Positions 33,560-53,487 are shown, counted from the first letter of the stretch. The stretch is 64,000 nucleotides of DNA from Actinomycetota bacterium (GCA_052387235.1 JBQTJJ010000001.1:7581-71580); one strand, 5' to 3'. Notes: a model not told the origin generated them from the letters alone. Numbers and translations: made by a program.

Positions 33560-34726
33560 TCAGCGATGGACGAGCTGGGTGAGGCGCACGAGTTGGGCCA
33601 CATCCCGGCCCGACGGGGTCACCGTGGGGGGGACCACCAGGAAGGCGGTCGCGGCAGATGGGCCGCCCCCCACCTCCCCCACCGCCTGCCGGGGCCCGGG
33701 GGCGTCGCCCGGCATCACCAGCATCTGCGTGGAGAAGGATCCGGTGGCGTCGGCGGTGACGGCCTTCTCGCCCAGGCCGGGCAGCCAGCGCAGGGTGACG
33801 GCGGCGTTGGCCGGGTAGCCGGTCCCGTTCAGCTGGGTCACGAAGCCCGGCGGCCCGATGCAGGGCGAGCAGGTCAGCACCACCACGCCCGGCACGGTGG
33901 GCGGGATGGTGGTGGTCGTGGTGGGGATGGTGCTGTCCGGGGTGGTGGGCCTCGTCGTCGATGACGAGGAGGACGACGACGAGGACGAGCTGCTGCTGCT
34001 ACTACTACTGCTGCTGCTTGACGAGGTGGTGGTGCCAGGCGGCTTGCAGGGGACGTTCCAGTCCAGGCGGGCGCTCGCGCCTCGCTGGTCGCCGGCCCGC
34101 ACCGTGTAGCTGCCGGCCGCCGCCTCGGGCTGGGCGGGGACGGCCCAGCCCGTGACCTGCCAGGTGCCGCTGGCGGTGACCGTGGCCGTGATGCGGGTGA
34201 TCACGGTCTCCAGGCGGTAGAAGACCACCGTCACGATGTTCTGGGCCGTCGCCCCCCCCTGCCAGAGCGTCCCCGAGGCGGTGACCGACCAGGTGCCCGG
34301 CGCGGCGGGGCCGCACTGCTCCTCGCCGGTAGCCGCGTACGAGGGCTCGTCGTAGGCCCGCATGTCGGGCACGGACAGGAACGGGGCGCTGGCCGTGACG
34401 TTGAAGCAGGTCGTCCCGCACACCGTCTGGGTGGCCATCACGGTGTAGGTGCCGCCCGCCCGCCGGGCGGGCGCGATCGGGAGGGAGAACATGCCCTGGC
34501 CGTTGGCGGCGGTGCCACCGGCCGGGGCGCCGGCGAAGGTGACGTCGACCTTGCCGTTCGGGGCGAACCCGGTGCCGGTGACGGTGATGGACCATGTGCC
34601 GCTGGTGCCGGCCGGGGCCGACGAAGGGGTGAGGGTGATGGCGGCGCTGCTCTGCGCCGACGCGGCCGGGACCAGGACGGCGCCGGCCAGCAGGGCGGCG
34701 GCGACCAGGACCCGGGCCCGGCTCAT
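33560..34726 (-). CDS. Secreted multi-domain (Ig/IPT-like) protein with 22-Ser linker
   Basis: Sec signal MSRARVLVAAALLAGAVLVPAASA. Repeated beta-rich segments such as ITLTPSSAPAGTSGTWSITVTGTGF. ATG 34726 overlaps the upstream stop (ATGA). Confidence 0.65.
   Translation of the reverse strand: MSRARVLVAAALLAGAVLVPAASAQSSAAITLTPSSAPAGTSGTWSITVTGTGFAPNGKVDVTFAGAPAGGTAANGQGMFSLPIAPARRAGGTYTVMATQTVCGTTCFNVTASAPFLSVPDMRAYDEPSYAATGEEQCGPAAPGTWSVTASGTLWQGGATAQNIVTVVFYRLETVITRITATVTASGTWQVTGWAVPAQPEAAAGSYTVRAGDQRGASARLDWNVPCKPPGTTTSSSSSSSSSSSSSSSSSSSSSSTTRPTTPDSTIPTTTTTIPPTVPGVVVLTCSPCIGPPGFVTQLNGTGYPANAAVTLRWLPGLGEKAVTADATGSFSTQMLVMPGDAPGPRQAVGEVGGGPSAATAFLVVPPTVTPSGRDVAQLVRLTQLVHR
33959..34024 (-). 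repeat. Coding homopolymer: 22 consecutive Ser codons, flanked by Thr/Pro-rich linker
   Basis: Mixed TCG/TCA/AGC/AGT/TCC codons, read directly from the reverse complement. Confidence 0.9.
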
Positions 34727-35997
34727 GTCCCGATGGTCTTCACGAACCCCGCGAGGTAGACGGCAGTTGTGCAGGCCGGGCTGGCGCACTCGACGTGGAG
34801 CGTGACCTTGGTTCCTGGGGACACGATGACGGGTGACACGAAGTGGTAGTCCAAGTCCCGGAAGTTGGCCAGGTTGAGGCGAAGCAGGACCCGGTCACCC
34901 CGCTTCAATTCCACGATACCGCTGTCCCCGGCGGGGTTCTGGAGCACGATGTCGGTGAGCGAGAAGACCTGCTTGTCGCCCACCGTGACGGCATCCTCGA
35001 GCACCCCGGGCCCGTTCACGGCCAGCCTGGCGTCGAACGGGTTCCCGAGGTCCGTCTCCACCTCCTCGGCGCCGGCCTGGGCGCCGGGCGGCGTGCCGCC
35101 CGAGTCCCCGCCCCCGGTGTCGATCTGGGGTGCGGCCGCGCCGACCTGCTTGGCCAGGTCCTGCAGGGCTTCCTCGGTCTGCTCCAGGGGCTCCTCCACC
35201 GCCTCCTTCGCCGCCGACTCCACGGTCGGCTTGAGCAGGGTGAACCACAGGATGACCAGCAGGAGCAGGAGGGCCAGCACGGCCAGGAGGACCTTCCAGA
35301 ACCAGCTGGGCAGGCGGGGCTCTTGGAGATAGGAGCCGTCGACGGTGATCGGCGCGGCGCCGTCCGCCTCCACCGACACCTGGAACGGCAGCGTCTTCGG
35401 CCGCCCCCGCCAGAACGTCTTGAGCGGGCGGACCACGACCTTGGAGAACGTGGCGGTGTCGGGCTCGGCCACCAGCGCAGGGGGCCCGAACGAGAAGCGG
35501 AGCAGGTCGGCCGGGTCGGCGGCGGTGAGCACGGCGTTGACGCGGGTGTTGCCCCGGTTGTCGAGGGCCAGCTCGTGGCGCCCGACCCGGCCGCCGTGGG
35601 AAGTCCGCGGAAGCAGCTCGGCCGAGACGTCGACGAAACCGCCGACCTCGAGGGTGCCCTCCTCCACCATCCCGCCGGCCGGGTCCTCCTTGGACGACAC
35701 CTTGACCGCGAAGGGGATGGCGCCGGACCGGGCCTCCGCCGATCGGGGCACGGTGAAGCGGATGTGGGCGACGCCCTCTGCACCGGGGAACAGCGACAGG
35801 CTGGGTGGGTCGGCGGTGGCCCAGGCGGCGGCGTCGCCGAGGATCTCGAAGGTGAACTGGTCCACGACGGTGCCGGTGTTGCGGAGGCGGACGTCGACGA
35901 CGACGGTCCCTCCGGGCTCGACCTGCAGCGCCGAAGACGAGAGGGAGGCGGTCGCGCCCACGGCCCCGCAACATACGCCCGGGACCTGCGCCGTCAA
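34723..35997 (-). CDS. Bitopic membrane protein: N-terminal Ig/CARDB-like domains, one TM, C-terminal beta-rich domain
   Basis: No signal peptide. LQVEPGGTVVVDVRLRNTGTVVDQFTFEILG resembles CARDB/NEW3-type Ig folds. TM helix WFWKVLLAVLALLLLLVILWFTLL sits at about aa 235-258. Start is TTG 35997 or GTG 35961. Confidence 0.65.
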   Translation of the reverse strand: MTAQVPGVCCGAVGATASLSSSALQVEPGGTVVVDVRLRNTGTVVDQFTFEILGDAAAWATADPPSLSLFPGAEGVAHIRFTVPRSAEARSGAIPFAVKVSSKEDPAGGMVEEGTLEVGGFVDVSAELLPRTSHGGRVGRHELALDNRGNTRVNAVLTAADPADLLRFSFGPPALVAEPDTATFSKVVVRPLKTFWRGRPKTLPFQVSVEADGAAPITVDGSYLQEPRLPSWFWKVLLAVLALLLLLVILWFTLLKPTVESAAKEAVEEPLEQTEEALQDLAKQVGAAAPQIDTGGGDSGGTPPGAQAGAEEVETDLGNPFDARLAVNGPGVLEDAVTVGDKQVFSLTDIVLQNPAGDSGIVELKRGDRVLLRLNLANFRDLDYHFVSPVIVSPGTKVTLHVECASPACTTAVYLAGFVKTIGT

Positions 35998-36155
35998 AGG
36001 GCCCCGGGGAAGCCACCGGGGCAGCTCGCACTGCCCGTTCGGGTGACCTTCGCGGGAGGCCCGTTCGGGCCGTCCCGTGTGGAGCGCGCGTAGAGCCGTT
36101 GCGGAGGGGACCGTGCAAGAGTGCGGGCCCGGCGGGGGAAGGAGCAGGAACGAAA

Positions 36156-36782
36156 GTGGCCGATCGCATCCCCGTGTTCGTCTATGCCGCGGACCCGATC
36201 TCCCAGGCCGGGCTGGTGGCGCAGCTCCGCAGCCGGCCGGAGGTGACCGTCGTGGCCGCGGGCGACGTGGACACCGCCGTGGTGGCCATCGTCCTCTGCG
36301 ACGAGATCGACGACGAGGCCCTCAAGGCGGCCCGGGCCGTACAGCGCAACGGCTGTCCCAAGCTGGTGCTGGTGGCCACCCGCCTCGACGACGCCGGCCT
36401 CCTCCGGGCCGCGGAGACCGGCGCCAGCGGCCTCTTGCGCCGGAGCGAGGCCTCGCCCGAGCGCCTGGTGACGTGCGTCCGGTCGGCCCTGGCCGGCGAC
36501 GGGGCCGTCCCGCCCGACCTGCTGGGCCGGCTGCTCGACCAGGTGGGCCGCCTGCAGCGCCAGGTGCTGGCACCCCGCGGCCTCACCATGAGCGGCATGG
36601 CCGAGCGGGAGCTGGAGGTGCTCCGGCTCGTGGCCGACGGCCTCGACACGGCCGAGATCGCCAGCCGGCTCTCCTACTCGGAGCGCACGGTGAAGAACGT
36701 CATCCACGACATCACGTCCCGCTTCCAGCTGCGCAACCGGGCCCACGCCGTCGCCTACGCCGTGCGGGAGGGCCTCATCTGA
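36156..36782 (+). CDS. LuxR-family regulator with receiver-like N-terminal domain (atypical), no adjacent kinase
   Basis: GTG 36156 after GGGGGAAGGAGCAGG. C-terminal ERELEVLRLVADGLDTAEIASRLSYSERTVKNVI HTH. The N-terminal domain has only one Asp in the usual DD position and no clear conserved Lys. Confidence 0.8.
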   Translation: MADRIPVFVYAADPISQAGLVAQLRSRPEVTVVAAGDVDTAVVAIVLCDEIDDEALKAARAVQRNGCPKLVLVATRLDDAGLLRAAETGASGLLRRSEASPERLVTCVRSALAGDGAVPPDLLGRLLDQVGRLQRQVLAPRGLTMSGMAERELEVLRLVADGLDTAEIASRLSYSERTVKNVIHDITSRFQLRNRAHAVAYAVREGLI

Positions 36783-36803
36783 CCGGCTGACCCCGCCGGC
36801 GCC

Positions 36804-36853
36804 GGACTGGTAGCGGAACTGGTGCCCAGGGGGACCGATCCCGCTACCAGTCC
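36804..36853. promoter_or_regulatory. 13-bp perfect inverted repeat (hairpin/operator candidate) between the LuxR gene and the CIS operon
   Basis: GGACTGGTAGCGG (36804-36816) and CCGCTACCAGTCC (36841-36853) are separated by 24 nt that is itself partly self-complementary. Confidence 0.5.
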
Positions 36854-36946
36854 TGGCGGCGCGGGCCGAAAGGGCACCGGGAGCTGCCCGAACGGCTGCA
36901 CGGCGGCGGCTGGGCGGCGGCGGGCGGGGCTGGAATCGTCGCGACG

Positions 36947-37696
36947 GTGATCCACGACGTGGACGAGTCGCTCCGCCGGTTGCTGCGCCGGGACGCCCTC
37001 AACGGCTCCGACGTGGAGGTGGCGTTCGACGCGCCCACCAAGGAGTGGGCCGCGTCCCGGAACACGCCCAGCGTCGACGTCTACCTGTACGACATCCGCG
37101 AGAACATGCGCCGGCGGGACGTGATGTACGAGGAGGTCCGGGACGAGGACGGGCGGGTCCTCGCCCGCCGCCCGCCGCCCCGGCGCTTCGACCTCTCCTA
37201 CCTCCTCACCGCCTGGACGCAGCGGCCCGAGGACGAGCACCGCCTCCTGGCCGCCTGCCTGGGTTGCTTCCTGCGCTACGAGGTCCTCCCCGAGGAGGTG
37301 CTGGCCGGCGCCCTGGCCGACCAGGACCGGCCCGCCCACGTGCACATCGCCCTCCCACCGGCCGAGGACCGCAACATCTCCGACGTGTGGTCGGCGCTCG
37401 GGGGCGAGCTGAAGCCGTCCCTCGACCTGGTGGTGACCGCGCCGTTCGTGACGGGCCGCTCGGTGGACGTGGGCGCCCCGGTGCTGGAGGGACCGCTGCT
37501 GCGCATGCGGGGCGACGGCGTGGGGGAGGCGGCCGGCGCCCCGACCGTGACCGCCGCCAGGCCCGGCGCCGGCGGCCGGCGGCCCCGGGCCCCGGCCCGG
37601 CAGAAGCGGGCCCTGGCCGAGGAGCTGGTGCAGGGTGCCAAGGGCGAGGACCAGCCCGGGCGCAGCTTCTGGCTCAAGCAGCTGGAGTCGCCGTGA
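36947..37696 (+). CDS. CIS tail terminator/cap protein (DUF4255, Afp16/Pvc16-like)
   Basis: MIHDVDESLRRLLRRD ... VEVAFDAPTKEW ... PSVDVYLYDIREN ... DLSYLLTAW is the DUF4255 signature. GTG start. Confidence 0.85.
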   Translation: MIHDVDESLRRLLRRDALNGSDVEVAFDAPTKEWAASRNTPSVDVYLYDIRENMRRRDVMYEEVRDEDGRVLARRPPPRRFDLSYLLTAWTQRPEDEHRLLAACLGCFLRYEVLPEEVLAGALADQDRPAHVHIALPPAEDRNISDVWSALGGELKPSLDLVVTAPFVTGRSVDVGAPVLEGPLLRMRGDGVGEAAGAPTVTAARPGAGGRRPRAPARQKRALAEELVQGAKGEDQPGRSFWLKQLESP

Positions 37697-39810
37697 GCGG
37701 CCCCGGGAGCTCGCCCGTGCGGCCCTCGCCCTCGACAGCGCCGGGACGCAACGGCGGCCCGGTGCCGGCCGGGGCCGACCCGTCGCTGGCCCAGCTGCTG
37801 GCCCGGCTGGCCGCCGTGGAGGCCCGGGTGCGCGAGGAGGTGGGCCGGCGGCGGGCGCGCGACGCGGCCCCCGACGACCGCTTCCGCGGCCTCTACATCT
37901 CCGAGGCCCAGGTCGACGAGCTGCTGTCGGGGCCCCGCCCCCGGCCGGCCGGCCGGACCGCAGCGGCGACGCCGCCACCGGGGAGCCGCGACCGGGCCGG
38001 CGCCGGGCCGACCCGGCTGGAGCGCCTGGCCGGCGCCTTCGCCCTCGACGACGTGGACCTCGACCTGGTCGTCGTCGCCCTGGCGCCAGACCTCGACCCC
38101 CGCTTCGAGCGGCTGTACGGCTACCTCCACGACGACGTGACCAGGCGGCGGGCCAGCACCGGGCTGGCCCTGGAGCTGTGCGGTCTCGGGCTGGCGTCGG
38201 CCGAGCGCCGCCGCCTGGGCGAGGCCGGGGCGCTGTGCCGGGGCGGCGTCCTGGTGGTGGGCGAGCCCGAGCGACCCTTCCCCACCCGCTCCCTGCGCGT
38301 GCCCGACCGGGTCGCCCTCCACCTCCTGGGCGACCCCACGCCGGAGCCGTCGCTGGCGGGGCTCGTCATGACCACGGCCCCCCTCGCCAGCCGGGCGTCG
38401 TCCGATCTGGCCCGCGCCCTGGCCGCCGGGACCCGGCTCGCGTACCTGCGGGAGCGCCCCGGTGCGTCGGGCCACGCCACCGCCGCGGCCGCCTTCGCGG
38501 CTGCGGGGTGGCCGGCCGTCGTCCTGGACCTGCGCCGGCTGGCCCCCGGCGCCGACGCCGCGGTCATGGCCGCCACCGCGGTGAGGGAGGCGCGCCTGCT
38601 CGGCGCCGGCCTGGTGGCCGGCCCGGTCGAGGGGCTGGCCGAGCGGGACGTGGCCGCCCTGCGCACCATGGCCGACGTCACCTGGCCGGTGGTGCTGGTG
38701 GGGGGCCGGGGCTGGGACCCGGGGTGGTCGGCCGACGTGCCGCTGCTCCTGGATGCGCCGGCGCCGGCGCCGTCCCAGCGCGCCTCGCTGTGGCTGGCGG
38801 CCCTGTCCGGCGCGGGGGCGGAGGCCGTCGACGCGGCCGCGGCCACCACCCACTTCACCCTCTCGCCCGACCAGGTGTGGCGGGCGACGGTGACGGCCCG
38901 GCTGCGGGCCGAGGCCGAGGGCCGACCGCTGGGCGCCGGCGACCTGGGGCACGGCGCCCTGGCCCAGAACGGCGCCGGCCTGGAGCGGCTGGCCCGGCGC
39001 GTCGAGCCGGAGGTCGGCTGGGACGACCTGGTGCTGCCGGCGCCGGTGCTGCACCAGCTGCGGGAGCTCACCGTCCGGGCCCGCCTGGGCGACACCGTGT
39101 TCGGCGACTGGGGCCTGGGCCGTGGCCACCGGGGCCACCGCAGCCTCAGCGCCCTGTTCGCCGGGCCGTCGGGCGTCGGCAAGACGATGGCCGCCGAGGT
39201 GGTGGCCGGCGACCTGGGGCTCGACATGTACGCCATCGACCTGGCCACCGTCGTCGACAAGTACATCGGGGAGACGGAGAAGAACCTCGACCGCATCTTC
39301 ACCGAGGCGGAGCGGGTGAACGGGGTGATCTTCTTCGACGAGGCCGACGCCCTGTTCGGCAAGCGCTCCGAGGTCAAGGACGCCAGGGACCGCTACGCCA
39401 ACGTGGAGGTGGCCTACCTGCTCCAGCGGCTGGAGGCGTTCACCGGCATCGCCGTGCTCGCGACCAACCTGCGCAACAACGTGGACGAGGCCTTCGCCCG
39501 CCGCCTCGACGCGGTGGTGGACTTCCCGCTGCCCGAGGAGCCCGAGCGGCTCCGGCTCTGGGAGCACTGCCTGGGCCCGCTGGTGCCGAGGGCGCCCGAC
39601 CTGGACCTGGCCTTCATGGCCCGCTCCTTCAGCCTCTCGGGCGGCAACATCCGCAACGTGACCGTGGCCGCCGCCTTCAGCGCGGCGAGCCGCAGGGAGG
39701 AGGTCACCATGGCCGATCTGGTCCGGGCCACCCAGCGCGAGTACCGCAAGCTGGGCCGCCTGTGCGTGGAGGCCGAGTTCGGCCCCTGGCTCGAGGTGGT
39801 GGCGCCATGA
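37693..39810 (+). CDS. CIS AAA+ ATPase (Afp15/Pvc15-like)
   Basis: GTG 37693 overlaps the upstream stop. Walker A FAGPSGVGKT, Walker B VIFFDEADALF, ATNL...D.A..RR. Long N-terminal non-ATPase region, as in Afp15-type proteins. Confidence 0.88.
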   Translation: MSGPGSSPVRPSPSTAPGRNGGPVPAGADPSLAQLLARLAAVEARVREEVGRRRARDAAPDDRFRGLYISEAQVDELLSGPRPRPAGRTAAATPPPGSRDRAGAGPTRLERLAGAFALDDVDLDLVVVALAPDLDPRFERLYGYLHDDVTRRRASTGLALELCGLGLASAERRRLGEAGALCRGGVLVVGEPERPFPTRSLRVPDRVALHLLGDPTPEPSLAGLVMTTAPLASRASSDLARALAAGTRLAYLRERPGASGHATAAAAFAAAGWPAVVLDLRRLAPGADAAVMAATAVREARLLGAGLVAGPVEGLAERDVAALRTMADVTWPVVLVGGRGWDPGWSADVPLLLDAPAPAPSQRASLWLAALSGAGAEAVDAAAATTHFTLSPDQVWRATVTARLRAEAEGRPLGAGDLGHGALAQNGAGLERLARRVEPEVGWDDLVLPAPVLHQLRELTVRARLGDTVFGDWGLGRGHRGHRSLSALFAGPSGVGKTMAAEVVAGDLGLDMYAIDLATVVDKYIGETEKNLDRIFTEAERVNGVIFFDEADALFGKRSEVKDARDRYANVEVAYLLQRLEAFTGIAVLATNLRNNVDEAFARRLDAVVDFPLPEEPERLRLWEHCLGPLVPRAPDLDLAFMARSFSLSGGNIRNVTVAAAFSAASRREEVTMADLVRATQREYRKLGRLCVEAEFGPWLEVVAP

Positions 39811-40964
39811 GAGGGCGCGCCCATGTCGAGGCCGAGGAACGGGTCCCGGTCGCCAGGCCGGCGCCCGCGCCGGCCGGCCCCGCCGTCGCGACCGAGCCGG
39901 GCCTGGCCGGCGGCCTCCTCGGCCTCCAGGCCACCGCCGGCAACGCGGCGGTGGGGAGTCTGGTGGAGCGGCGCGGGAGCGGCCCGTGCCCCTGCGGCGG
40001 CAGCGGTGGCGACTGTGCCTGCGAGGCCGGGAGGGGCGACGAGCAGGGGGAGGATCGGGCAGGCGAGGCCCTCGACCCCGGCGCCCGCGCCTTCCTGGAG
40101 GCCCGCTTCGGGCGGGACCTGGGCGACGTGCGGGTCCACACCGGTGCCGGGGCGGCCGCCTCGGCCGAGTCGGCCGGCGCCGAGGCGTACACCACCGGCA
40201 AGGACATCGTGTTCGCCCCGGGCGCCTACCGGCCCGACTCGCCCGAGGGCCGCCACCTGCTGGCCCACGAGGTGGCCCACACCCTCCAGCCCGAGCGCGG
40301 GCCGGCCCCGTCCGGGCCCGTCTCCCGCCCCGGCGACCCGGCCGAGGTGGCCGCGGCCCGGGCCGCCGATGCCGTCGCCGCCGGCGCCGCCCCGGCCCGG
40401 CTCGGCAGCCGGCCGGCCGGGGTGGTGCACCGCCAGGCCGAGGACGAGGAGGCCGCTCCCCAGCCGGTGCCGGACATGAGCGGGACCGGGGAGGTGACCG
40501 AGGTGCAGGCCATGGCCAACATCTCCCTGCCCGGACGGACCGATGCCAGCTTCTCCAGCTCGTTCACGACCCAGGGCGCCACCCGCAGGCGCGGCGAGGG
40601 CGGCTGCGACACCGTCGCCGGGAACATGGTGAACACCTTCACCGTGTCGACCACGGTGACGCTGCCGCCGGTCCCGGACGGGCTCACCGAGTGCCAGGCC
40701 GCCAACGCCCAGCGCTTCATCGACACGATCCTCGCCCCGCACGAGCAGGAGCACGTGGCCCACTTCAACACCTACAACGGGACGTCCACCGTGCCGTTCA
40801 GCCTGACGGTCTGCGCCGGCGACGACCTCCAGGCCATGATCCAGGCCGAGCACGACACGGCCCAGTCCACCCGGCAGGCCGCGGCCCAGGCCCTCAGCGA
40901 CTCCATCGACCCGTTCAACGTCGACGTCGACATCGACGCGGGCTGCGAGGCACCGGCGGAGTGA
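39807..40964 (+). CDS. DUF4157 protein (intact HEVAH) with Cys cluster and unknown C-terminal domain carrying a second HExxH; candidate CIS cargo
   Basis: ATG 39807 overlaps the ATPase stop. LQATAGNAAV ... FLEARFGRDLGDVRVHTG ... AYTTGKDIVFAPG ... LLAHEVAHTLQ matches DUF4157. CPCGGSGGDCAC lies upstream. HEQEH at nt 40740-40754. Confidence 0.8.
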   Translation: MRGRAHVEAEERVPVARPAPAPAGPAVATEPGLAGGLLGLQATAGNAAVGSLVERRGSGPCPCGGSGGDCACEAGRGDEQGEDRAGEALDPGARAFLEARFGRDLGDVRVHTGAGAAASAESAGAEAYTTGKDIVFAPGAYRPDSPEGRHLLAHEVAHTLQPERGPAPSGPVSRPGDPAEVAAARAADAVAAGAAPARLGSRPAGVVHRQAEDEEAAPQPVPDMSGTGEVTEVQAMANISLPGRTDASFSSSFTTQGATRRRGEGGCDTVAGNMVNTFTVSTTVTLPPVPDGLTECQAANAQRFIDTILAPHEQEHVAHFNTYNGTSTVPFSLTVCAGDDLQAMIQAEHDTAQSTRQAAAQALSDSIDPFNVDVDIDAGCEAPAE

Positions 40965-41013
40965 TCAAGGCGGGTGCCGGCGCACCCGGACCCGAACGAG
41001 AGGAGCCTGACCG

Positions 41014-42381
41014 ATGGCCGGAGCCGGACGAGCGAGGAGGCCGGGGGGTGAGGAGGCCCGCCACCCGGAGCGCGCCGTGGCCCCGGCCCGGCCGGCGCCG
41101 GCGCCCGCCGACGACGCGGCACCGGAGCACTCCCCCCTGCTCGACCTGCAGCGCCAGGTCGGCAACGCCGGTGTGCAGGAGCTGGTCGACCTGGCCGGGT
41201 CGGAGCCGGGGCGGCCGCTCGACCCCGACGTGCGGGCCTCGATGGAGGCGTCGTTCGGCCGGTCGTTCGCCGGCGTCGAGGTCCATGAGGGACCGGCCGT
41301 CGACCGGGCCGCCGAGGGGCTCGGCGCCGCCGCCTTCGCGGCCGGGGAGGACGTCTTCCTGCGATCCGACGTCGACCCCGGGACGCCGCCGGGCCGGGAG
41401 GTGCTGGGTGAGGAGCTGGCCCACGTGGCCCAGGGGGTGGGCGCGAACCGCGCCGCCCACCTGCTGCCGCCAGAGGGCGGGGTCGAGCAGGAGGCCCACC
41501 GGGCCGCCCACGAGGCGGCCGAAGGGCGGCCCGCGGCGGTGAGCTTCGCCCCGGCCGCCGCCACCGGCGTCGGCCGCTTCCTCGACCCCATCAGCCTCGG
41601 TGTCATCGGGGGCATCGGCTACGGGGTCAAGAAGCTCTACGAGGAGCTCACCGAGGAGGAGGTGGAGGCGACCAAGCCCGACCCCGACCAGCCCACCCAG
41701 GCGACCGTCGATGCGATAAAGGGCGGTGTCCCGCCCCAGCTCGACGCCGCCGTGGCCAAGCTGGGCGGTGACCCGACCCCGGCCAACAGCAAGGCCGCCG
41801 CCGCCTCCCTCTCCTCGGTGAAGGACTTCCTGATCGGCCAGCTGCCCCCCACCAACCAGGGGCCGGTGATGTCCGTGCTGCTCACCGTGACAGGGGCCAT
41901 CAACACCCTGGAGGCGGCGGCCGACCCGACCGGTGTGCTCAAGGAGCTGCAGGGCAGCGTGGCCGCCAAGAAGGCCGAGCTGGACGGGCTCGTGGCCAGC
42001 GCCAAGGAGCCGGCCGTGGGACCGGACGGCAAGGAGCTGCCGCCGGACGCGCTCACGCCCGACCAGGCGTCGATCCTGAGCAGCGGGCCGGTGGTCTGGA
42101 TGGGCGAGGCGGCCACCATGCTGGCCGAGCCGGAGCCCGATCCCGATCTGATCGCCGGCAAGCTCGACGGGGCGGCCGGCGCCATCCGCAGCGTGAACGC
42201 GCCGCCGGCCGTCCTGCCGCAGCTGACCAAGATCGCCTTGAACTGCGGGTTGTACGCGGAGACGGCCAAGGCGACCAAGCTCACCGTGGCCGAGTCCGTC
42301 CCCCAGGCCATGGCGCAGCTCGAGGCGGCCAAGTCGATGATCGCCGAGCTGGGCGTGCCGCCCGAGATCCCGCCGGAGTGA
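41014..42381 (+). CDS. DUF4157 protein (degenerate metal motif EELAH) with helical C-terminal domain; candidate CIS cargo
   Basis: LQRQVGNAGVQELV ... MEASFGRSFAGVEVHEG ... AFAAGEDVFL ... LGEELAHVAQG. The C-terminal about 270 aa is Ala/Leu/Lys/Pro-rich and I do not recognise it. Confidence 0.75.
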   Translation: MAGAGRARRPGGEEARHPERAVAPARPAPAPADDAAPEHSPLLDLQRQVGNAGVQELVDLAGSEPGRPLDPDVRASMEASFGRSFAGVEVHEGPAVDRAAEGLGAAAFAAGEDVFLRSDVDPGTPPGREVLGEELAHVAQGVGANRAAHLLPPEGGVEQEAHRAAHEAAEGRPAAVSFAPAAATGVGRFLDPISLGVIGGIGYGVKKLYEELTEEEVEATKPDPDQPTQATVDAIKGGVPPQLDAAVAKLGGDPTPANSKAAAASLSSVKDFLIGQLPPTNQGPVMSVLLTVTGAINTLEAAADPTGVLKELQGSVAAKKAELDGLVASAKEPAVGPDGKELPPDALTPDQASILSSGPVVWMGEAATMLAEPEPDPDLIAGKLDGAAGAIRSVNAPPAVLPQLTKIALNCGLYAETAKATKLTVAESVPQAMAQLEAAKSMIAELGVPPEIPPE

Positions 42382-42388
42382 CGGGGCC

Positions 42389-42416
42389 GCCGGCCTGCCC
42401 GTAGGGGCAGGCCGGC
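42389..42416 (+). terminator. Perfect 12-bp stem / 4-nt loop hairpin between the cargo genes and the sheath gene
   Basis: GCCGGCCTGCCC-GTAG-GGGCAGGCCGGC starts 8 nt after the stop at 42381. It is followed only by TT, so the U-tract is weak. Confidence 0.5.
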
Positions 42417-42506
42417 TTACCCGGAGGCACGCCCGGCCGGCCCTACCGGCAGCCCGGGCCCGGCGCCATCCTCGCCTCCGACCGACCTTGTGCGAGGAGG
42501 GGCCGC

Positions 42507-44045
42507 ATGCCTCAGTACCTTTCGCCCGGCGTCTACATCGAGGAGAAGGAGCCCGGCGCCCGACCCATCGAAGGGGTGGCGACGGCAGTGGCCGCCTTCG
42601 TCGGCGTGGCGACCCAGGGACCGTTCAACACGCCCACCCTCGTCACGAACTGGACGCAGTTCACCCAGACGTTCGGGGACTTCGCCGAGGGCTCCTACCT
42701 GGCCCACGCCGTCTACGGGTACTTCCTCAACGGCGGCGGCAGCGCCTACATCGTGCGCATCGGCGACGACGCCTCGGCCGGCGCCGCCCCGCCGGCCCGG
42801 GCCGAGCTGATGAGCGCCAGCGACACCACCATCGGCGCCTACCGGGTCAACGCCCTGGAGCCCGGAACGACGGGGAACGACATCACCGTCGAGGTGCAGG
42901 ACGCCTCGGAGCCCGGCCCCGAGACCTTCAAGCTGGTGGTGCGCAAGGGCAGCACCGAGGAGACCTTCGACAACCTCACCACCAGGCGGGGCCGGCAGAA
43001 CGCGGTCACGGTGGTGAACCAGCAGTCGCAGCTCGTCCGGCTGGAGGAGATCGGCACCGCGGCGGCGGTCGAGCGCCGGCCCGCCTCGGGCGTGGCCACC
43101 CTGGGCGGCGGCGGCGCCGTGCCCACGCCGGCCAGCATCTCGGCCGAGGACTACGTGGGCAACTCGGCCGACCGCACCGGCTTCGGTGGGCTGGAGGCCA
43201 TCGACGACGTCACCATGGTGAGCGTCCCCGACATCATCGCCGCCTACGAGCGGAACATGATCGAGCTGGAGGGCCTCCAGGCCGTGCAGCTGGCCATGAT
43301 CGCCCACTGCGAGCTGATGGGCGACCGCATGGCCATCCTCGACCCCCCGCCCGGCCTCAACGCCCAGCAGATCAAGGAGTGGCGGGTCGACAAGGCCGGC
43401 TACGACTCCAAGTACGCAGCCCTCTACTGGCCCCGGATCAGGGTCTTTGACCCCGCCTCGGGCCAGAACATCTACGTGCCGCCCAGCGGGCACATGGCCG
43501 GGATCTGGGCCCGCACCGACGGCACCCGGGGCGTCCACAAGGCCCCGGCCAACGAGGTCGTGCGGGGCGCCATCTCCCTCGAGACGAACATCACCAAGGG
43601 CGAGCACGACAGCCTGAACCCGGTGAACGTGAACTGCATCCGCGCCTTCCCGGGCCGGGGCGTGCGCGTCTGGGGGGCCCGGACCCTGTCCAGCGATCCC
43701 GGGTGGCGCTACGTCAACGTGCGCCGCCTCTTCAACTACGTGGAGAAGTCGATCCTGGGCGGGACCCAGTGGGTGGTGTTCGAGCCCAACGACAACCTGC
43801 TGTGGGGGGCGGTCAAGCGGACCATCGCCGCCTTCCTCTACCGGGTGTGGCTGGACGGCGCCCTCTTCGGCACCACGCCCGAGCAGGCCTTCTACGTGAA
43901 GTGCGACGACGAGACCAACCCCCAGGAGGTCATCGAGGCGGGGCAGGTGGTGTGCGAGATCGGCATCGCCCCCGTCAAGCCGGCCGAGTTCGTGGTGTTC
44001 CGGCTGGCCCAGCTGCCGTCCGGCACGTCGGCCCTCTCCGAGTAG
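42507..44045 (+). CDS. Contractile tail sheath protein (Afp2-4/Pvc2-4-like)
   Basis: MPQYLSPGVYIEE....RPIEGV.T..AAFVG ... NPVN.IR.FPGRG..VWGARTL is the canonical sheath N- and C-terminal signature. Confidence 0.93.
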   Translation: MPQYLSPGVYIEEKEPGARPIEGVATAVAAFVGVATQGPFNTPTLVTNWTQFTQTFGDFAEGSYLAHAVYGYFLNGGGSAYIVRIGDDASAGAAPPARAELMSASDTTIGAYRVNALEPGTTGNDITVEVQDASEPGPETFKLVVRKGSTEETFDNLTTRRGRQNAVTVVNQQSQLVRLEEIGTAAAVERRPASGVATLGGGGAVPTPASISAEDYVGNSADRTGFGGLEAIDDVTMVSVPDIIAAYERNMIELEGLQAVQLAMIAHCELMGDRMAILDPPPGLNAQQIKEWRVDKAGYDSKYAALYWPRIRVFDPASGQNIYVPPSGHMAGIWARTDGTRGVHKAPANEVVRGAISLETNITKGEHDSLNPVNVNCIRAFPGRGVRVWGARTLSSDPGWRYVNVRRLFNYVEKSILGGTQWVVFEPNDNLLWGAVKRTIAAFLYRVWLDGALFGTTPEQAFYVKCDDETNPQEVIEAGQVVCEIGIAPVKPAEFVVFRLAQLPSGTSALSE

Positions 44046-44093
44046 CAGCAGGCCCACCGGCGGCACCACCCCGCCCCAGAAAGGAGCGCGTCC

Positions 44094-44537
44094 ATGCCCA
44101 TCGGCGAACACCCGATCGCGGGTTACAGCTACCACGTCGAGATCAGCGGCGTCACCATGGCCCAGTTCAAGTCGGCCGAGGGCCTCGGCATCAAGATCGG
44201 CGTCATCGAGCACCGGGAGAACAAGCTGACCGGCCTGCCCGTGCTGAAGAAGCTGCCCGGCCACGTCCAGTACAGCGACATCACCCTCAAGCGGGGCAAG
44301 GTCAACGACAAGGTCTTCTGGGACTGGATCAAGCAGGTGGCCGACGGCGACATCGACGGGGCCCGCAAGGAGGGCTCGGTGGTGCTGTTCGACTACGCCC
44401 ACGGCGAGGTGGGGCGCTTCGACTTCGAGGGCGCCTGGCCCAGCGACGTGAACGTGGGCGCCCTGGACGCGGCGGGCGACGAGGTCCTGCTCGAGAGCCT
44501 CACCATCACCATCGAGAAGCTCAACGTCCCGGCCTAG
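44094..44537 (+). CDS. Tail tube protein (T4 gp19-like, Afp1-like)
   Basis: Y.V.I.G...A.F....GL...I.V.E.RE ... G.V.Y.DITLKRG...D..FWDW pattern. RBS AAAGGAG. Confidence 0.9.
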   Translation: MPIGEHPIAGYSYHVEISGVTMAQFKSAEGLGIKIGVIEHRENKLTGLPVLKKLPGHVQYSDITLKRGKVNDKVFWDWIKQVADGDIDGARKEGSVVLFDYAHGEVGRFDFEGAWPSDVNVGALDAAGDEVLLESLTITIEKLNVPA

Positions 44538-44541
44538 GACG

Positions 44542-44949
44542 ATGACCCCGCCCGTCGCCGAGGCCGACCAGCAGGCCGGCCTGCACACCGAGTTCAGCTT
44601 CGAGCTGCCCGTGGGGTACGTGGACGGCTCCGGTGCCGTGCACAGGAGCGGCGTCATGCGCATGGCCACGGCGCGCGACGAGATCATGCCGCTGCGCGAC
44701 CCCCGCGTCCTCGACAACGAGGCCTACCTCTCGGTGATCCTGCTGGCGCGCGTCGTCACCCGGCTGGGCACGGTGACGTCGGTGAACCCCGGGGTCATCG
44801 AGGGCCTGTTCGCCGCCGACCTGGCCTTCCTCCAGGACCTCTACCGGCGGGTCAACCAGGAGGGCCACACCCGCGCCGCCGTCAGCTGCCCGTCCTGCCA
44901 GCACGAGTTCGCGGTCGACGTGGCCGGTGGTCGCCCGGGGGAATCGTGA
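44542..44949 (+). CDS. Conserved CIS protein at the tail-assembly-chaperone position, with C-terminal CxxC
   Basis: Sits between tube and tape-measure-like genes. FELPVGYVDGSG.VHRSGVMRMATARDE ... CPSCQHEF. Function is inferred from position only. Confidence 0.6.
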   Translation: MTPPVAEADQQAGLHTEFSFELPVGYVDGSGAVHRSGVMRMATARDEIMPLRDPRVLDNEAYLSVILLARVVTRLGTVTSVNPGVIEGLFAADLAFLQDLYRRVNQEGHTRAAVSCPSCQHEFAVDVAGGRPGES

Positions 44950-45110
44950 CGTACGCGCCCGACCGTCTGTTCGAGGAGGTCGCGTACGTGGCGTACCACT
45001 TCCACTGGCCGCTCGCCGAGATCATGGACCTGGAGCACCCGCTGCGGCGTCGCTTCGTGGAGGAGATCGGCGCCATCAACCGGCGCCTGTCCGAGCACCA
45101 GGGGGCCTGA
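44946..45110 (+). CDS. Small conserved CIS-associated protein (54 aa; not in the supplied ORF track)
   Basis: GTG 44946 overlaps the upstream stop (GTGA). Translation: VTYAPDRLFEEVAYVAYHFHWPLAEIMDLEHPLRRRFVEEIGAINRRLSEHQGA. It resembles the short protein usually encoded here in actinobacterial CIS loci (I believe DUF6760; to be verified). Confidence 0.6.
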   Translation: MTYAPDRLFEEVAYVAYHFHWPLAEIMDLEHPLRRRFVEEIGAINRRLSEHQGA

Positions 45111-45117
45111 CGAGGCC

Positions 45118-47616
45118 ATGCGCCGGCCCTTCCGGCGGGAGCGCACCGAGCCCGCACCGGCGCCGGCGCCGGCCGCCGCCCCGCCGCCCGCGCCCCCGGC
45201 CTCACCGGACCGGGGCGCCCGCCACGGCCCGTGGGACGAGCTGCCCCGCCTGCGGGCCACGGCCGAGCAGCTGGAGACGACCGCGGCGACAGCGGCGTTC
45301 CTTTCCGAGCTGATCACCCGCCAGCCGGCGCCGGTGGCCCTGCAGCCCCTCAGCCACGACGTCTCGCTCAGCGCGCCGGCCGGCATCGTGCTCGGCATCG
45401 CCACCACCGTGGAGCGGCGGGGGCCGGACGCGGAGCTGCCCCTCGCCCCTCCCCCACCGCCCGCCGGTGCCCCGGCGGGCCGGTCCACACCGGTCCCGGC
45501 GGCCAGGCGGCCGGCGAGCGACGGACCGGCGGTGCGGGCCAGCGGCGACCGCCGACGGGCCCCGGACCAGGGCCGAATCCGGCCCCTCCCCACCGTGGCG
45601 GCCCCGACCCGGGCCGGGCCGGCGAGGGCTCCCGCTCCGCCTCCTGACACCGCCATCGGCTCGGCCCCGGCCGGCGAGGCGGGCGGCGAGGGCACGGGGG
45701 CGGCGACGCTGGGCCGGGCCGGGCGCGCCGCGCCGGTGCCGGCCCGCGCCCCCGGCGACGACCCCGCCGCCCCGCCGGCCGGGCCCGAGCCCACTGCCAC
45801 CGCGCCCGACCTGGTGCTGCCCCCCGTGACCGGCACGACTCGGCCCCCGCCCGGCCACGACCGGACCGCCCCCGCGGGCGCGGCCGCCGCCTCGCCGACC
45901 GGGCTCGACCCCGCCTCGCCGGCCGGGCCCGACCCTGCCCCGCCGGCCGAGCCGGTCCCGGGGCCGGATCCTGCCCCGCCGGCCGAGCCGGGCCCGCGGC
46001 CGGCACCAGCGCTCCGCGAGCCGGCCCCCGTCTCGGTGGACCGGCCCCGCCCGCCGGCCGTCCCGGCGCCGGCCAAGCCCGACCGGCCGCCGCAGCTGCG
46101 GGCTCCCACCCTGGGGCGCCGAGCCGAGGCCCGGCCCCGCATCGGGCCCCCGATGGCGTCGCCGGCCGGCGGCGCCCAGCGGGCCCCCAAGAAGGTGGGC
46201 GGCACGGCCACCGGAGGCAGCTCGCCCGCCCCGGCCACCGGGCCGGTGGCCAAATCGACCGGCGGCGGCGGGCCCGGCGGCGGGGAACCGATGCTGCCGC
46301 CGTCGACCCTCCCCGTGCTCAACCCCGGTGGCGACCTCACGGGCGGGGGTGGATCCGGTGCCGGCCCGGGCGGCGAGACGACCGTGTCCGGCGGCGGGAG
46401 CTTCGGGGGCTCCCTCACCGTGGGCGGCGAGGTCACGGCCGGCGGCGGCCTGACGGCCGGGGGCGGCCTGTCGGCGGGCGGCGAGGGTGTGGTCGGCGGA
46501 GGGGCCACCGTGGGAGGCGGCGTGCTGGCCGGGGGCGACGTCACGGCCGGCGGAGCCGGCACCTTCGGGGGGGCGGCCACGGTGGGCGGCGACCTCTCGG
46601 TGGGCGGGGCCGCATCAGTGGGTGGGGCGGCCGCCGTGGGCGGGGAGATCACGGCCGGCGGGGCCGCCACCGTGGGTGGCTCGGCCACGGTGGGGGCCAA
46701 CCTGTCGGTCGGGTCCACCGTCAGCGCCGGCGCCGGCATGTCGGCGCCCACGCTGGCCGTGGGCAGCCTGATCGCCGGCTCGGTGACGGCCGGGTCGGTG
46801 GAGGCGGCCACCATCAGCGGGGGGGGTGGTGGGGGCGCCGGCGGTGGGGCGGCCCGGGCGCCCGACGCCACCGCGCCCCTGGTGAGCCGGCGCCCGCCCC
46901 TCACCGAGCGGGCCCACCGGCCGGAGGACCTGCCCGACGACGTGCGCCGGGACGTGGAAGCGGCGGCCGGCGTCCCCCTGGCCGGCGTGATGGTGCACCG
47001 GGGCGCGGGCGTCGGCATCGAGGCGGGCCGGCGGGAGGCACGGGCCTTCACCGCCGGCGGCGAGGTGTACCTGCCCAGCGAGCACGGCCCCCTCGACCAG
47101 GAGCCGGCCCGGTCACTGCTGGCCCACGAGCTGGTCCACGTCGGCCAGCAGCGCCGCCTCGGCCGGGCCCTCCCCCACGAGGCCACCACGGAGGGCCGCC
47201 AGCTGGAGGCCGGCGCGGCCGACGTGGAGCACCGGGTCTCCACCCTCCCCACCCGGGCCCACCACCCGCCCGGCGACCGCCCGGCCGCGGCCGCCGTCCG
47301 GGCCGGCGTGGCCAGCGAGGCCGGCGACGGCACGGTCCTGTTCTCCCCCCCGCCCGGCGAGGGGCCGGCCGCGACCGGCGCCGCCTCCGTCCCCGTGGCG
47401 CGCCCGGGACCGCAGCGGGCCGCCGGCGACGCCTCCGACACCGGCGCCAGCGCCCCCGCCGCCACCGGCGAGACCACCGGCCCGGCGCCGGCCGGCGCCG
47501 GCGACGAGGACGTCGAGGAGGTCGTCGACAAGCTCTACCGCCCCATCCTCGACCGCCTCCGCCGCGACCTGCTGATCGAGCGGGAGCGGGCCGGGCTCCT
47601 GCTGGACCGGAGGTAG
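45118..47616 (+). CDS. Tape-measure-position protein: Pro/Ala-rich region + Gly-rich repeats + embedded DUF4157 + conserved C-terminal helix
   Basis: Located between tube/chaperone and tube-initiator genes. DUF4157 block DVRRDVEAAAGVPLAGVMVHRG ... FTAGGEVYLP ... LLAHELVHVGQQ at about 46920-47155. C-terminus DKLYRPILDRLRRDLLIERERAGLLLDRR. Confidence 0.75.
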   Translation: MRRPFRRERTEPAPAPAPAAAPPPAPPASPDRGARHGPWDELPRLRATAEQLETTAATAAFLSELITRQPAPVALQPLSHDVSLSAPAGIVLGIATTVERRGPDAELPLAPPPPPAGAPAGRSTPVPAARRPASDGPAVRASGDRRRAPDQGRIRPLPTVAAPTRAGPARAPAPPPDTAIGSAPAGEAGGEGTGAATLGRAGRAAPVPARAPGDDPAAPPAGPEPTATAPDLVLPPVTGTTRPPPGHDRTAPAGAAAASPTGLDPASPAGPDPAPPAEPVPGPDPAPPAEPGPRPAPALREPAPVSVDRPRPPAVPAPAKPDRPPQLRAPTLGRRAEARPRIGPPMASPAGGAQRAPKKVGGTATGGSSPAPATGPVAKSTGGGGPGGGEPMLPPSTLPVLNPGGDLTGGGGSGAGPGGETTVSGGGSFGGSLTVGGEVTAGGGLTAGGGLSAGGEGVVGGGATVGGGVLAGGDVTAGGAGTFGGAATVGGDLSVGGAASVGGAAAVGGEITAGGAATVGGSATVGANLSVGSTVSAGAGMSAPTLAVGSLIAGSVTAGSVEAATISGGGGGGAGGGAARAPDATAPLVSRRPPLTERAHRPEDLPDDVRRDVEAAAGVPLAGVMVHRGAGVGIEAGRREARAFTAGGEVYLPSEHGPLDQEPARSLLAHELVHVGQQRRLGRALPHEATTEGRQLEAGAADVEHRVSTLPTRAHHPPGDRPAAAAVRAGVASEAGDGTVLFSPPPGEGPAATGAASVPVARPGPQRAAGDASDTGASAPAATGETTGPAPAGAGDEDVEEVVDKLYRPILDRLRRDLLIERERAGLLLDRR
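46381..46850 (+). repeat. In-frame Gly-rich short-period repeats (about 20 units of V/T-G-G-x-x-T/S)
   Basis: SLTVGGEVTAGGGLTAGGGLSAGGEGVVGGGATVGGGVLAGGDVTAGGAGTFGGAATVGGDLSVGGAASVGGAAAVGGEITAGGAATVGGSATVGANLSVGSTVSAG... Confidence 0.85.
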
Positions 47617-52925: not shown

Positions 52926-53468
52926 GTGCGAGGGCTGATCGAGGGCCTGGCCAGCCCCCACCCGCTCGAACCCATGCTGCCCCCCATGTTGCGGGGCGAG
53001 GACTTCCTGGAGCGCTTCACCGGTGCCCTCGACGATGTGCTGGCACCGGCCTTGTGCGCCCTCGACAACCTGCCCGCCTACCTCGACCCGGTGCTGGCGC
53101 CGCCCGACTTCCTGGCCTGGCTCGGCAGCTGGTTGGGGATGGACCTCGACGACGACTGGCCGCTCGACCGGCGCCGCACCATGGTCGCCCACGCCGCCGG
53201 TCTGTACGAGCGGCGCGGGACGGTGTCCGGACTGGCCGACCTGGTGGCCCTGTACACGGGGGCGGGGCCGGAGATCGTGGAGGGCGGCGGGGTCTCGTGG
53301 TCGGCCACACCGGGCGGCAGCCTCCCGGGCACGGGGTCCCCGCTCGTCCTGGTACGGGCCCGCTTCGCGGGCGACCCGCCAACCGACACCGACCTGGCCC
53401 GTATCGACGGGCTGGTGGCGGCGGCCAAGCCGGCCCATCTCCAGCACACCGTGGAGGTCCTGCCGTGA
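52926..53468 (+). CDS. Phage tail protein I-like baseplate protein (P2 gpI/Afp12-like)
   Basis: LPPMLRGEDFLERF...LD.VLAP....LDNL.AYLDP..AP.DFL.WL..WLG..LD..W ... YE.RGT..GL pattern. GTG 52926 after GGGAGGGGG. The longer listed ORF overlaps the previous gene. Confidence 0.8.
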   Translation: MRGLIEGLASPHPLEPMLPPMLRGEDFLERFTGALDDVLAPALCALDNLPAYLDPVLAPPDFLAWLGSWLGMDLDDDWPLDRRRTMVAHAAGLYERRGTVSGLADLVALYTGAGPEIVEGGGVSWSATPGGSLPGTGSPLVLVRARFAGDPPTDTDLARIDGLVAAAKPAHLQHTVEVLP

Positions 53469-53487
53469 ACGAGAGGGCTGGCGGCCG

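Follow-up and report, generated by a model that had tools for sequence, protein, structure and literature searches.

Adjacent DUF4157 proteins in an actinobacterial contractile injection system locus: a probable cargo pair and a large family of HExxH domains

We analyzed two neighboring genes, here called A and B, that lie between the ATPase and sheath genes of a contractile injection system (CIS) locus in a stretch of Actinomycetota DNA (JBQTJJ010000001.1:7581-71580). The whole stretch of 64,000 nucleotides is referred to as the window. Each gene codes for a protein with a disordered N-terminus, a central DUF4157 domain, and a C-terminal domain of its own. By analogy with Cgo1 and Cgo2 of AlgoCIS from Algoriphagus machipongonensis, we consider it probable that A and B form a cargo pair of the window's CIS. 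A cargo pair of this type is a known sort of system. What is new is the C-terminal domain of A, designated CTD-A, which represents a large and unnamed family of CIS-linked HExxH domains that are either fused to DUF4157 or encoded separately.

The hallmark domain of CIS cargo is DUF4157. Published work found it dispensable for AlgoCIS loading, and its HExxH motif dispensable for Cgo1 toxicity. In about half of the predicted CIS effectors, DUF4157 is the only annotated domain (PMC11297309). The CTD-A family provides DUF4157 with a concrete, testable partner and could also serve as a marker for better prediction of cargo in CIS loci.

Domain organization of A and B

The features of the two genes are as follows.

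39807..40964, + strand: gene A, 385 residues, with a disordered N-terminus, DUF4157, and an HExxH C-terminal domain
39915..39965, + strand: LQxxxGNxxV motif LLGLQATAGNAAVGSLV, A residues 37-53, in common with B
39987..40022, + strand: Cys cluster CPCGGSGGDCAC, A residues 61-72, kept in close orthologues of A
40071..40301, + strand: DUF4157/eCIS_core, A residues 89-165, with HEVAH at residues 154-158 (40266-40280); PF13699 E = 6.8e-29, 100.3 bits
40458..40961, + strand: CTD-A, A residues 218-385, a DUF922-like predicted metalloenzyme domain with HEQEH at residues 312-316 (40740-40754)
41014..42381, + strand: gene B, 455 residues, with a disordered N-terminus, a degenerate DUF4157, and a helical C-terminal domain
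41137..41187, + strand: motif LLDLQRQVGNAGVQELV, B residues 42-58, which aligns with the matching motif of A
41215..41436, + strand: DUF4157/eCIS_core, B residues 68-141, with EELAH at residues 133-137 (41410-41424); PF13699 E = 1.1e-20, 74.0 bits
41569..42378, + strand: linker followed by a ten-helix domain, CTD-B, B residues 186-455; AlphaFold2 mean predicted local distance difference test (pLDDT) 83.6, predicted template modeling score (pTM) 0.75

Third-position guanine-plus-cytosine (GC) content is 0.96 in A and 0.95 in B. These values resemble the 0.98 of the sheath gene and thus indicate that both frames are truly coding. The start codon of A belongs to an ATGA that overlaps the stop codon of the ATPase gene, in agreement with an earlier, sequence-only reading of this DNA (the original prediction) that had proposed translational coupling between the two. 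The N-terminus of A, which begins MRGR, is kept in its orthologues P0002-P0005. GAGAGGAG precedes the ATG of gene B.

The original prediction had recognized a DUF4157 core in both proteins, and the profile for this domain (PF13699, now named eCIS_core) detects it in each at several times the gathering threshold of 22 bits. Also borne out were the HEVAH motif, the Cys cluster, the HEQEH motif and several Cys residues described for A, four of which (267, 296, 336, and 380) are in CTD-A, as well as the EELAH motif and helical C-terminus described for B. A "GN.A...L" element that had been counted as part of the DUF4157 core is present in both proteins, but it falls upstream of the domain and outside the Pfam model. 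This element belongs to the LQxxxGNxxV motif, which is found in 40 of 180 DUF4157 proteins at a median distance of 37 residues upstream of the domain and in 31 of 122 CTD-A family members that lack DUF4157. A and B align over the upstream motif (LLxLQxxxGNAxVxxLV) and DUF4157 with 37% identity (E = 3e-11), and the Cys cluster of A forms a 25-residue insert relative to B in this alignment.

Disorder-promoting residues make up 78-85% of the N-termini of A and B, and the linkers are modeled with pLDDT values below 50. Neither protein has a transmembrane segment (the highest Kyte-Doolittle mean over 19 residues is 1.07 for A and 1.44 for B), and neither was matched in PADLOC or PHROGs.

The two DUF4157 domains differ at the metal-binding motif. 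HExxH is intact in A (HEVAH) and in a third DUF4157 protein of the locus, protein C (HELVH), whereas B has EELAH. Intact motifs are the rule, as 168 of 174 sampled DUF4157 domains (97%) have one, and the B family accounts for five of the six exceptions. EELAH is invariant across all six members of the B family. Having lost the first zinc-binding His, the DUF4157 domain of B probably acts non-catalytically. A single operon thus offers a natural contrast between an intact DUF4157 motif and a fixed degenerate one.

CTD-B is a lineage-restricted helical bundle. Its family comprises five to six proteins, and a profile search that aimed to widen it still returned only five. In the AlphaFold2 model, which was built from an alignment of only six sequences, the first 33 residues have pLDDT values below 50 and the C-terminal 230 residues form a bundle of ten helices. 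The bundle has no enzyme-like motif, and Foldseek returned no match for it in the PDB at E <= 1e-3. A sub-threshold NCBIfam match of B to PID-CTERM was judged spurious.

A and B resemble the cargo pair of AlgoCIS

An early description named DUF4157 the "PVC-metallopeptidase", a peptidase proposed to release the toxins that PVCs deliver (PMC3482391). Later work described it as an eCIS core domain, enriched on or beside effectors (PMC8213781, PMC11297309). The cargo proteins of AlgoCIS, Cgo1 (ALPR1_12695, UniProt A3HTB0, 498 residues) and Cgo2 (ALPR1_12690, 1228 residues), fill the tube lumen and exit upon contraction, as seen by cryo-electron tomography and mass spectrometry, and Cgo1 has an HExxH motif both in DUF4157 and in its C-terminal domain (PMC8894135). 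Loading in AlgoCIS requires a disordered N-terminus and is mediated by an AAA+ protein, and DUF4157 is dispensable for it (bioRxiv 10.64898/2026.05.27.728243).

The proteins of the window share many of these properties. As in AlgoCIS, two DUF4157 proteins are encoded together in a CIS cluster, and each combines a disordered N-terminus and a central DUF4157 with a C-terminal domain that differs from that of its partner. Like Cgo1, A has a second HExxH motif in its C-terminal domain, a likeness of architecture. There are also differences. The host is a member of the Actinomycetota rather than the Bacteroidota, A and B are encoded between the ATPase and the sheath rather than after the tape-measure gene, and B, at 455 residues and with its degenerate motif, is unlike the much larger Cgo2. 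Direct evidence of a location in the lumen concerns Cgo1 and Cgo2 only.

Several observations support the assignment of A and B as cargo. Both proteins match PF13699 far above threshold inside a complete CIS locus, and their position, architecture, and pairing reproduce those of Cgo1 and Cgo2. The original prediction that A and B are loaded effectors or loading adaptors is partly supported by this analogy. By its own account, a match of their C-terminal domains to a structural CIS component would have counted against it, and searches of Pfam, NCBIfam, PHROGs, PADLOC, and Foldseek returned no sheath, tube, baseplate, spike, fiber, or tape-measure family for either. Orthologues of A and B in the window and in a related locus (L001) are 64-68% identical, compared with 93-97% for the sheath and tube proteins. 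This faster divergence fits the drift expected of cargo. The gene order ATPase, A, B, sheath is kept in three related loci (L001, L002, and L005). A distant locus, L042, has the order ATPase, DUF4157, CTD-A, B-like, Pvc16, sheath, and L043 has ATPase, B-like, sheath.

We infer loading, delivery, and enzymatic activity from the domains, motifs, conservation, and synteny of A and B. If they are cargo, their disordered, Pro/Ala/Arg-rich N-termini with the LQxxxGNxxV motif would constitute a loading signal specific to the system. The AAA+ ATPase, whose gene adjoins that of A and is translationally coupled to it, would recognize this signal and thread A and B into the tube lumen, and contraction of the sheath would expel them. 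The toxic part would not be DUF4157, which would instead serve as an accessory module, either an adaptor or chaperone or a self-processing peptidase. The payload of A would be its 150-residue C-terminal domain, a DUF922-like predicted metallohydrolase with invariant HExxH, Arg, and Asp residues, and that of B would be its lineage-specific helical domain, next to a DUF4157 that would be non-catalytic. Engineers of actinobacterial CISs could consider the conserved leader and the LQxxxGNxxV motif as candidate loading tags.

Other DUF4157-linked and actinobacterial proteins are less similar. The polymorphic toxins associated with the PVC-metallopeptidase (Zhang et al. 2012) have the same layout as A, with an N-terminal DUF4157 and a C-terminal toxin domain, and CTD-A matches no Pfam model from the polymorphic toxin catalogue (Tox-MPTase and similar). 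Sco4256-4258 of Streptomyces coelicolor are, like A and B, encoded inside an actinobacterial CIS cluster, and they are needed for a filled tube lumen (PMC10066040). Unlike A and B, which lack both features, each of them contains one transmembrane domain, and two of them also contain a ricin-type lectin domain.

CTD-A defines a large family of HExxH domains

We searched 1.84 billion representative sequences (clusters at 50% identity) with a hidden Markov model (HMM) of CTD-A. The search recovered 352 clusters, 303 of them at E <= 1e-10. The domain is nearly always C-terminal, in proteins of 200-480 residues. Judged by these sequence matches, CTD-A is not lineage-specific but belongs to a large, unnamed family.

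The family is strongly conserved at residues that resemble an active site. Across 154 full-length homologous domains drawn from the 50%-identity clusters, P287, H312, H316, R356, and D368 are present in 100%, E313 in 99%, S364 in 98%, and the four Cys in 96-97%. Most members have two additional Cys that were lost in the window's clade. An HExxH motif arises in 0.37% of shuffles of CTD-A's own composition, which indicates that HEQEH is beyond chance and under strong selection.

An AlphaFold2 model of CTD-A from an 11-sequence alignment (pLDDT 83, pTM 0.71) shows a long beta-hairpin, a long helix that carries HExxH, a third strand, and a second long helix. HExxH sits on model helix 78-106, and D368 and S364 lie just past the next helix, where the model makes them candidates for the third metal ligand.

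The only recurrent Pfam signal in the family is a weak one to DUF922 (PF06037, gathering threshold 27 bits). It was seen in 13 of 26 members at E <= 0.1 (best E = 1.4e-5) and in 11 of 146 full-length members at E <= 0.001; other Pfam families that matched CTD-A members were singletons. In A, the match spans domain residues 27-104 against profile positions 30-102 of 153. In both CTD-A and DUF922, the helix that bears the conserved HExxH comes after a beta-hairpin region. Unlike DUF922, CTD-A proteins lack signal peptides, are located in CIS loci, and have an invariant R...SDxxDPF motif of their own together with 4-6 conserved Cys. The function of DUF922 is itself a prediction. CTD-A is most likely a zinc-dependent hydrolase or peptidase distantly related to DUF922, an activity predicted from these similarities.

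Several other candidate relatives were rejected. Matches to NDUFB10 were at chance level (E ~0.7-1). The weak top Foldseek matches of CTD-A and CTD-B (lipoprotein 4kwy, McpS/PilJ sensor bundles, and SmhA/ClyA pore formers) had template modeling scores (TM-scores) <=0.35 and were not used. The idea that CTD-A is a duplicated DUF4157 was also discarded, as hhalign of the two family profiles aligned only a 9-residue HExxH stretch, with a probability of 2.7%. Profile searches of PDB sequences with 11 or 26 CTD-A sequences found no relatives. A pattern-limited scan of viral contigs and a tblastn search of plasmids gave no CTD-A match.

CTD-A genes lie beside CIS ATPase and DUF4157 genes in eight phyla

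We examined the genomic context of CTD-A in a scan of one genome per species, which yielded 33 loci from Actinomycetota, Cyanobacteriota, Acidobacteriota, Verrucomicrobiota, Pseudomonadota, Chloroflexota, Bacteroidota, and Desulfobacterota. In 24 of the 33 loci, a close homologue of the CIS ATPase is encoded on the same strand within 8 kb, and in seven it is the immediate neighbor of CTD-A; these homologues match the AAA half of the window ATPase with E values from 1e-53 to 1e-145. Five of the nine loci with no ATPase match are contigs shorter than 7 kb. Another DUF4157 open reading frame (ORF), usually of 1200-1950 residues, is nearby in 22 of the 33 loci. Pfam spot checks of these neighbors confirmed WHD + AAA and eCIS_core, and the metagenomic locus L039 also has a CIS_TMP gene.

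CTD-A is fused to DUF4157 in four of the 33 loci (the window, L021, L025, and L029) and in 32 of 146 family members. In two more loci, L031 and L042, it is a separate gene that directly follows a small DUF4157 gene. The occurrence of both forms suggests a physical partnership of CTD-A with DUF4157 modules. In a further resemblance to AlgoCIS, Bacteroidota-type genes that combine DUF4157 and CTD-A (L029 and L038-L040) adjoin an AAA ATPase gene, and a giant DUF4157 protein is encoded near those in L029, L038, and L039. A signal-peptide-like N-terminus was seen in only 3 of 141 family members, so the proteins are not Sec-exported, which fits packaging in the cytoplasm. The conservation of CTD-A beside CIS ATPases is accounted for no less well by a conserved cargo or accessory enzyme than by a variable toxin.

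The N-termini of family members vary by lineage. A strongly basic leader (MxxRRxRRRR...) is present in 49 of 105 members without DUF4157 (P0157-P0303), and in Bacteroidota-type members DUF4157 is preceded by additional repeated "FF" motifs and a QRKCxxC cluster. These elements may be lineage-specific loading signals.

Two of the loci had further features of note. L038/L039 (1020-12866) codes for a 2489-residue protein with two DUF4157 domains, a ParA-like protein, a protein with DUF4157 and CTD-A, and a 453-residue AAA ATPase. This module adjoins genes for a Rep3 replication initiator and a second ParA, and it may be plasmid-borne. In L042 (6113-8050), the CIS ATPase was called as two genes, one for the WHD (295 residues) and one for the AAA part (260 residues), which reflects either a frameshift or assembly error or a truly split ATPase.

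Weighing cargo against other roles

Several results weigh against the assignment of A and B as a Cgo1/Cgo2-type cargo pair with a toxic, zincin-like payload. Unlike typical polymorphic toxins, CTD-A keeps to a single syntenic module in different phyla, with no swapping among related loci. No immunity gene adjoins A or B. Cgo1 inhibits the growth of Escherichia coli independently of either HExxH motif (PMC8894135). The link of CTD-A to a metallohydrolase also has weak points. The CTD-A of A scores 19.3 bits against DUF922 (E = 0.0013), which is sub-threshold, and DUF922 is itself annotated as a zinc-dependent protease that is zincin-like by prediction only, with a weak FFAS score of -7.4 (PMC3650047). 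Foldseek gave no match for the CTD-A model at E <= 1e-3 in the PDB or BFVD (best TM-scores <=0.39) and recognized neither a zincin nor any other fold. These Foldseek results agree in part with the original prediction that the C-terminal domains could be new effector folds, but CTD-A is not new at the family level, given its ~350 clusters and the link to DUF922. As for immunity, toxins linked to the PVC-metallopeptidase often lack an immunity gene (PMC3482391).

The main rival holds that CTD-A proteins, including A, are conserved accessory enzymes of the CIS rather than toxins, whether or not they are packaged themselves. As a metalloprotease, CTD-A could then act on the giant DUF4157 or tape-measure-like cargo to process or release it, or could help to clear or plug the tube. 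Phylum-wide synteny of CTD-A with the ATPase and the giant DUF4157 proteins favors this explanation: the three-gene module (CIS ATPase, DUF4157 protein of 1200-1950 residues, and small CTD-A protein) recurs in 22-24 of the 33 loci in eight phyla. The invariance of the catalytic-looking residues, the occurrence of CTD-A in both fused and separate forms, the missing immunity gene, and the HExxH-independent toxicity of Cgo1 count in its favor as well. On the other side, the family is missing from many CIS loci, including those of PVC, Afp, and the characterized Streptomyces systems according to published descriptions. Orthologues of A and B drift faster than structural proteins, and some CTD-A members have leader-like N-termini, as known cargo does. 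Particles without Cgo1 still assembled and were partly filled (PMC8894135), so Cgo1, a possible relative of CTD-A proteins, is not needed for assembly. On balance, we regard a role as accessory enzyme as unlikely.

A broader version would make CTD-A an unrecognized, near-"shell" component of CISs. It would be a small metalloenzyme, encoded in eight or more phyla within a three-gene module that also specifies the ATPase and a giant DUF4157 or tape-measure-like protein, and it would process, release, or activate cargo or tube contents rather than poison the target. We advance this version tentatively, as a minority reading. If it is correct, DUF4157 gains a defined partner, in cis or in trans.

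Studies of Streptomyces suggest another role. Sle2, a small DUF4157 protein of Streptomyces, partners in trans with the cargo Sle1 (PMC13277306), and Tme, a giant DUF4157 effector related to tape-measure proteins, associates with the spike complex (PMC11126660). The systems of S. lividans (Sle2/Sle1) and S. davawensis (Tme) are, like that of the window, actinobacterial CISs. In these systems DUF4157 acts with a cargo domain in cis as well as in trans, which parallels the fused and split arrangements of DUF4157 and CTD-A (the window compared with L031 and L042). A, B, or both might likewise be loading adaptors rather than active payload, with DUF4157 binding the spike/tube-initiator complex and the C-terminal domain tethering a different cargo (protein C, for example, or an effector encoded elsewhere). 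Such a role is possible, especially for B, since its fixed EELAH argues for a non-catalytic binding function and its helical bundle has no enzyme-like motif. The co-purification of S. davawensis Tme with spike, tip, and tube-initiator proteins (PMC11126660) is also consistent with it. However, Sle2 consists of little besides DUF4157, whereas A and B each have a C-terminal domain of 150-230 residues that is well folded in the models. The invariant active-site-like motif of CTD-A and the finding that AlgoCIS loading needs no DUF4157 (bioRxiv 10.64898/2026.05.27.728243) also speak against adaptors, and we give this role a low probability. The partners differ as well. Sle1 resembles a tape measure and has coiled coils and a membrane hairpin, and Tme exceeds 2000 residues and has a nuclease domain. 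A and B have no coiled-coil tape-measure regions or transmembrane helices, and the Tme-like counterpart in the window is protein C.

It is highly improbable that A and B are unrelated to the CIS, whether as passenger genes or as decayed remnants, in view of their intact ORFs with third-position GC of 0.95-0.96, the coupling of A to the ATPase gene, the synteny kept in several related and distant loci, and the reported odds ratio of 2614 for DUF4157 in eCIS loci (PMC8213781).

The CIS locus of the window

The window has a GC content of 70-80%, and the nearest relatives of its proteins are from metagenome-assembled genomes of Acidimicrobiales. Pfam searches identified a complete CIS locus on the + strand, whose contents include two gp19-type tube proteins, CIS_tube/LysM, VgrG-like, gp25, and Baseplate_J proteins. 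The features around A and B are as follows.

36099-36782, + strand: LuxR/GerE regulator
36947-37696, + strand: Pvc16/Afp16
37693..39810 (start 37693 or 37762), + strand: CIS AAA+ ATPase of the Afp15/Pvc15 type; Pfam WHD E = 1e-20, AAA E = 1.5e-24
42507..44045, + strand: sheath gene; Pfam Phage_sheath_1 and Phage_sheath_1C
44094-44537, + strand: gp19-type tube protein
44542-44949, + strand: tail-assembly-chaperone-like ORF, 135 residues; phrog_508, E = 8.5e-5
44946-45110, + strand: DUF6760-like ORF, 54 residues
45118..47616, + strand: protein C, the third DUF4157 protein, 832 residues, in the tape-measure slot; PF13699 at residues 605-680, E = 6.5e-15, 55.5 bits
Downstream of protein C, + strand: second tube-like protein, CIS_tube/LysM protein, VgrG-like spike, gp25, and Baseplate_J

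The ATPase is 83% identical to its orthologue in L001. A promoter and terminator scan of 36000-45200 found no sites, and such a scan is uninformative at 75% GC.

Protein C, in addition to its intact HELVH motif, has an N-terminal region of 600 residues that is rich in Pro, Ala, and Gly. Its gene lies directly 3' of the chaperone-like and DUF6760-like ORFs and 5' of the tube-initiator-like gene. Protein C may be the counterpart of Tme or of a tape measure in the window's CIS.

Directly after Baseplate_J is a gene for a 689-residue protein (53023-55092) with a zinc ribbon (residues ~156-180) and a C-terminal domain similar to F5/8 type C and NADase_transloc. This protein could be a target-binding or anchoring part of the CIS. 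At the end of the locus, a large SARP/AfsR-like regulator with STAND/AAA_16 NTPase, Trans_reg_C, and BTAD domains is encoded convergently on the - strand (55061-57985), in addition to the LuxR/GerE regulator upstream of the ATPase. Divergent from and upstream of the LuxR/GerE gene are two genes on the - strand (33560-35997) for proteins of ~410-420 residues, one of which has bacterial Ig-like domains. The equivalent gene pair in L001 (3507-6322) is joined by a DUF4280 (PAAR-like) gene, which suggests that the pair in the window may belong to the CIS locus.

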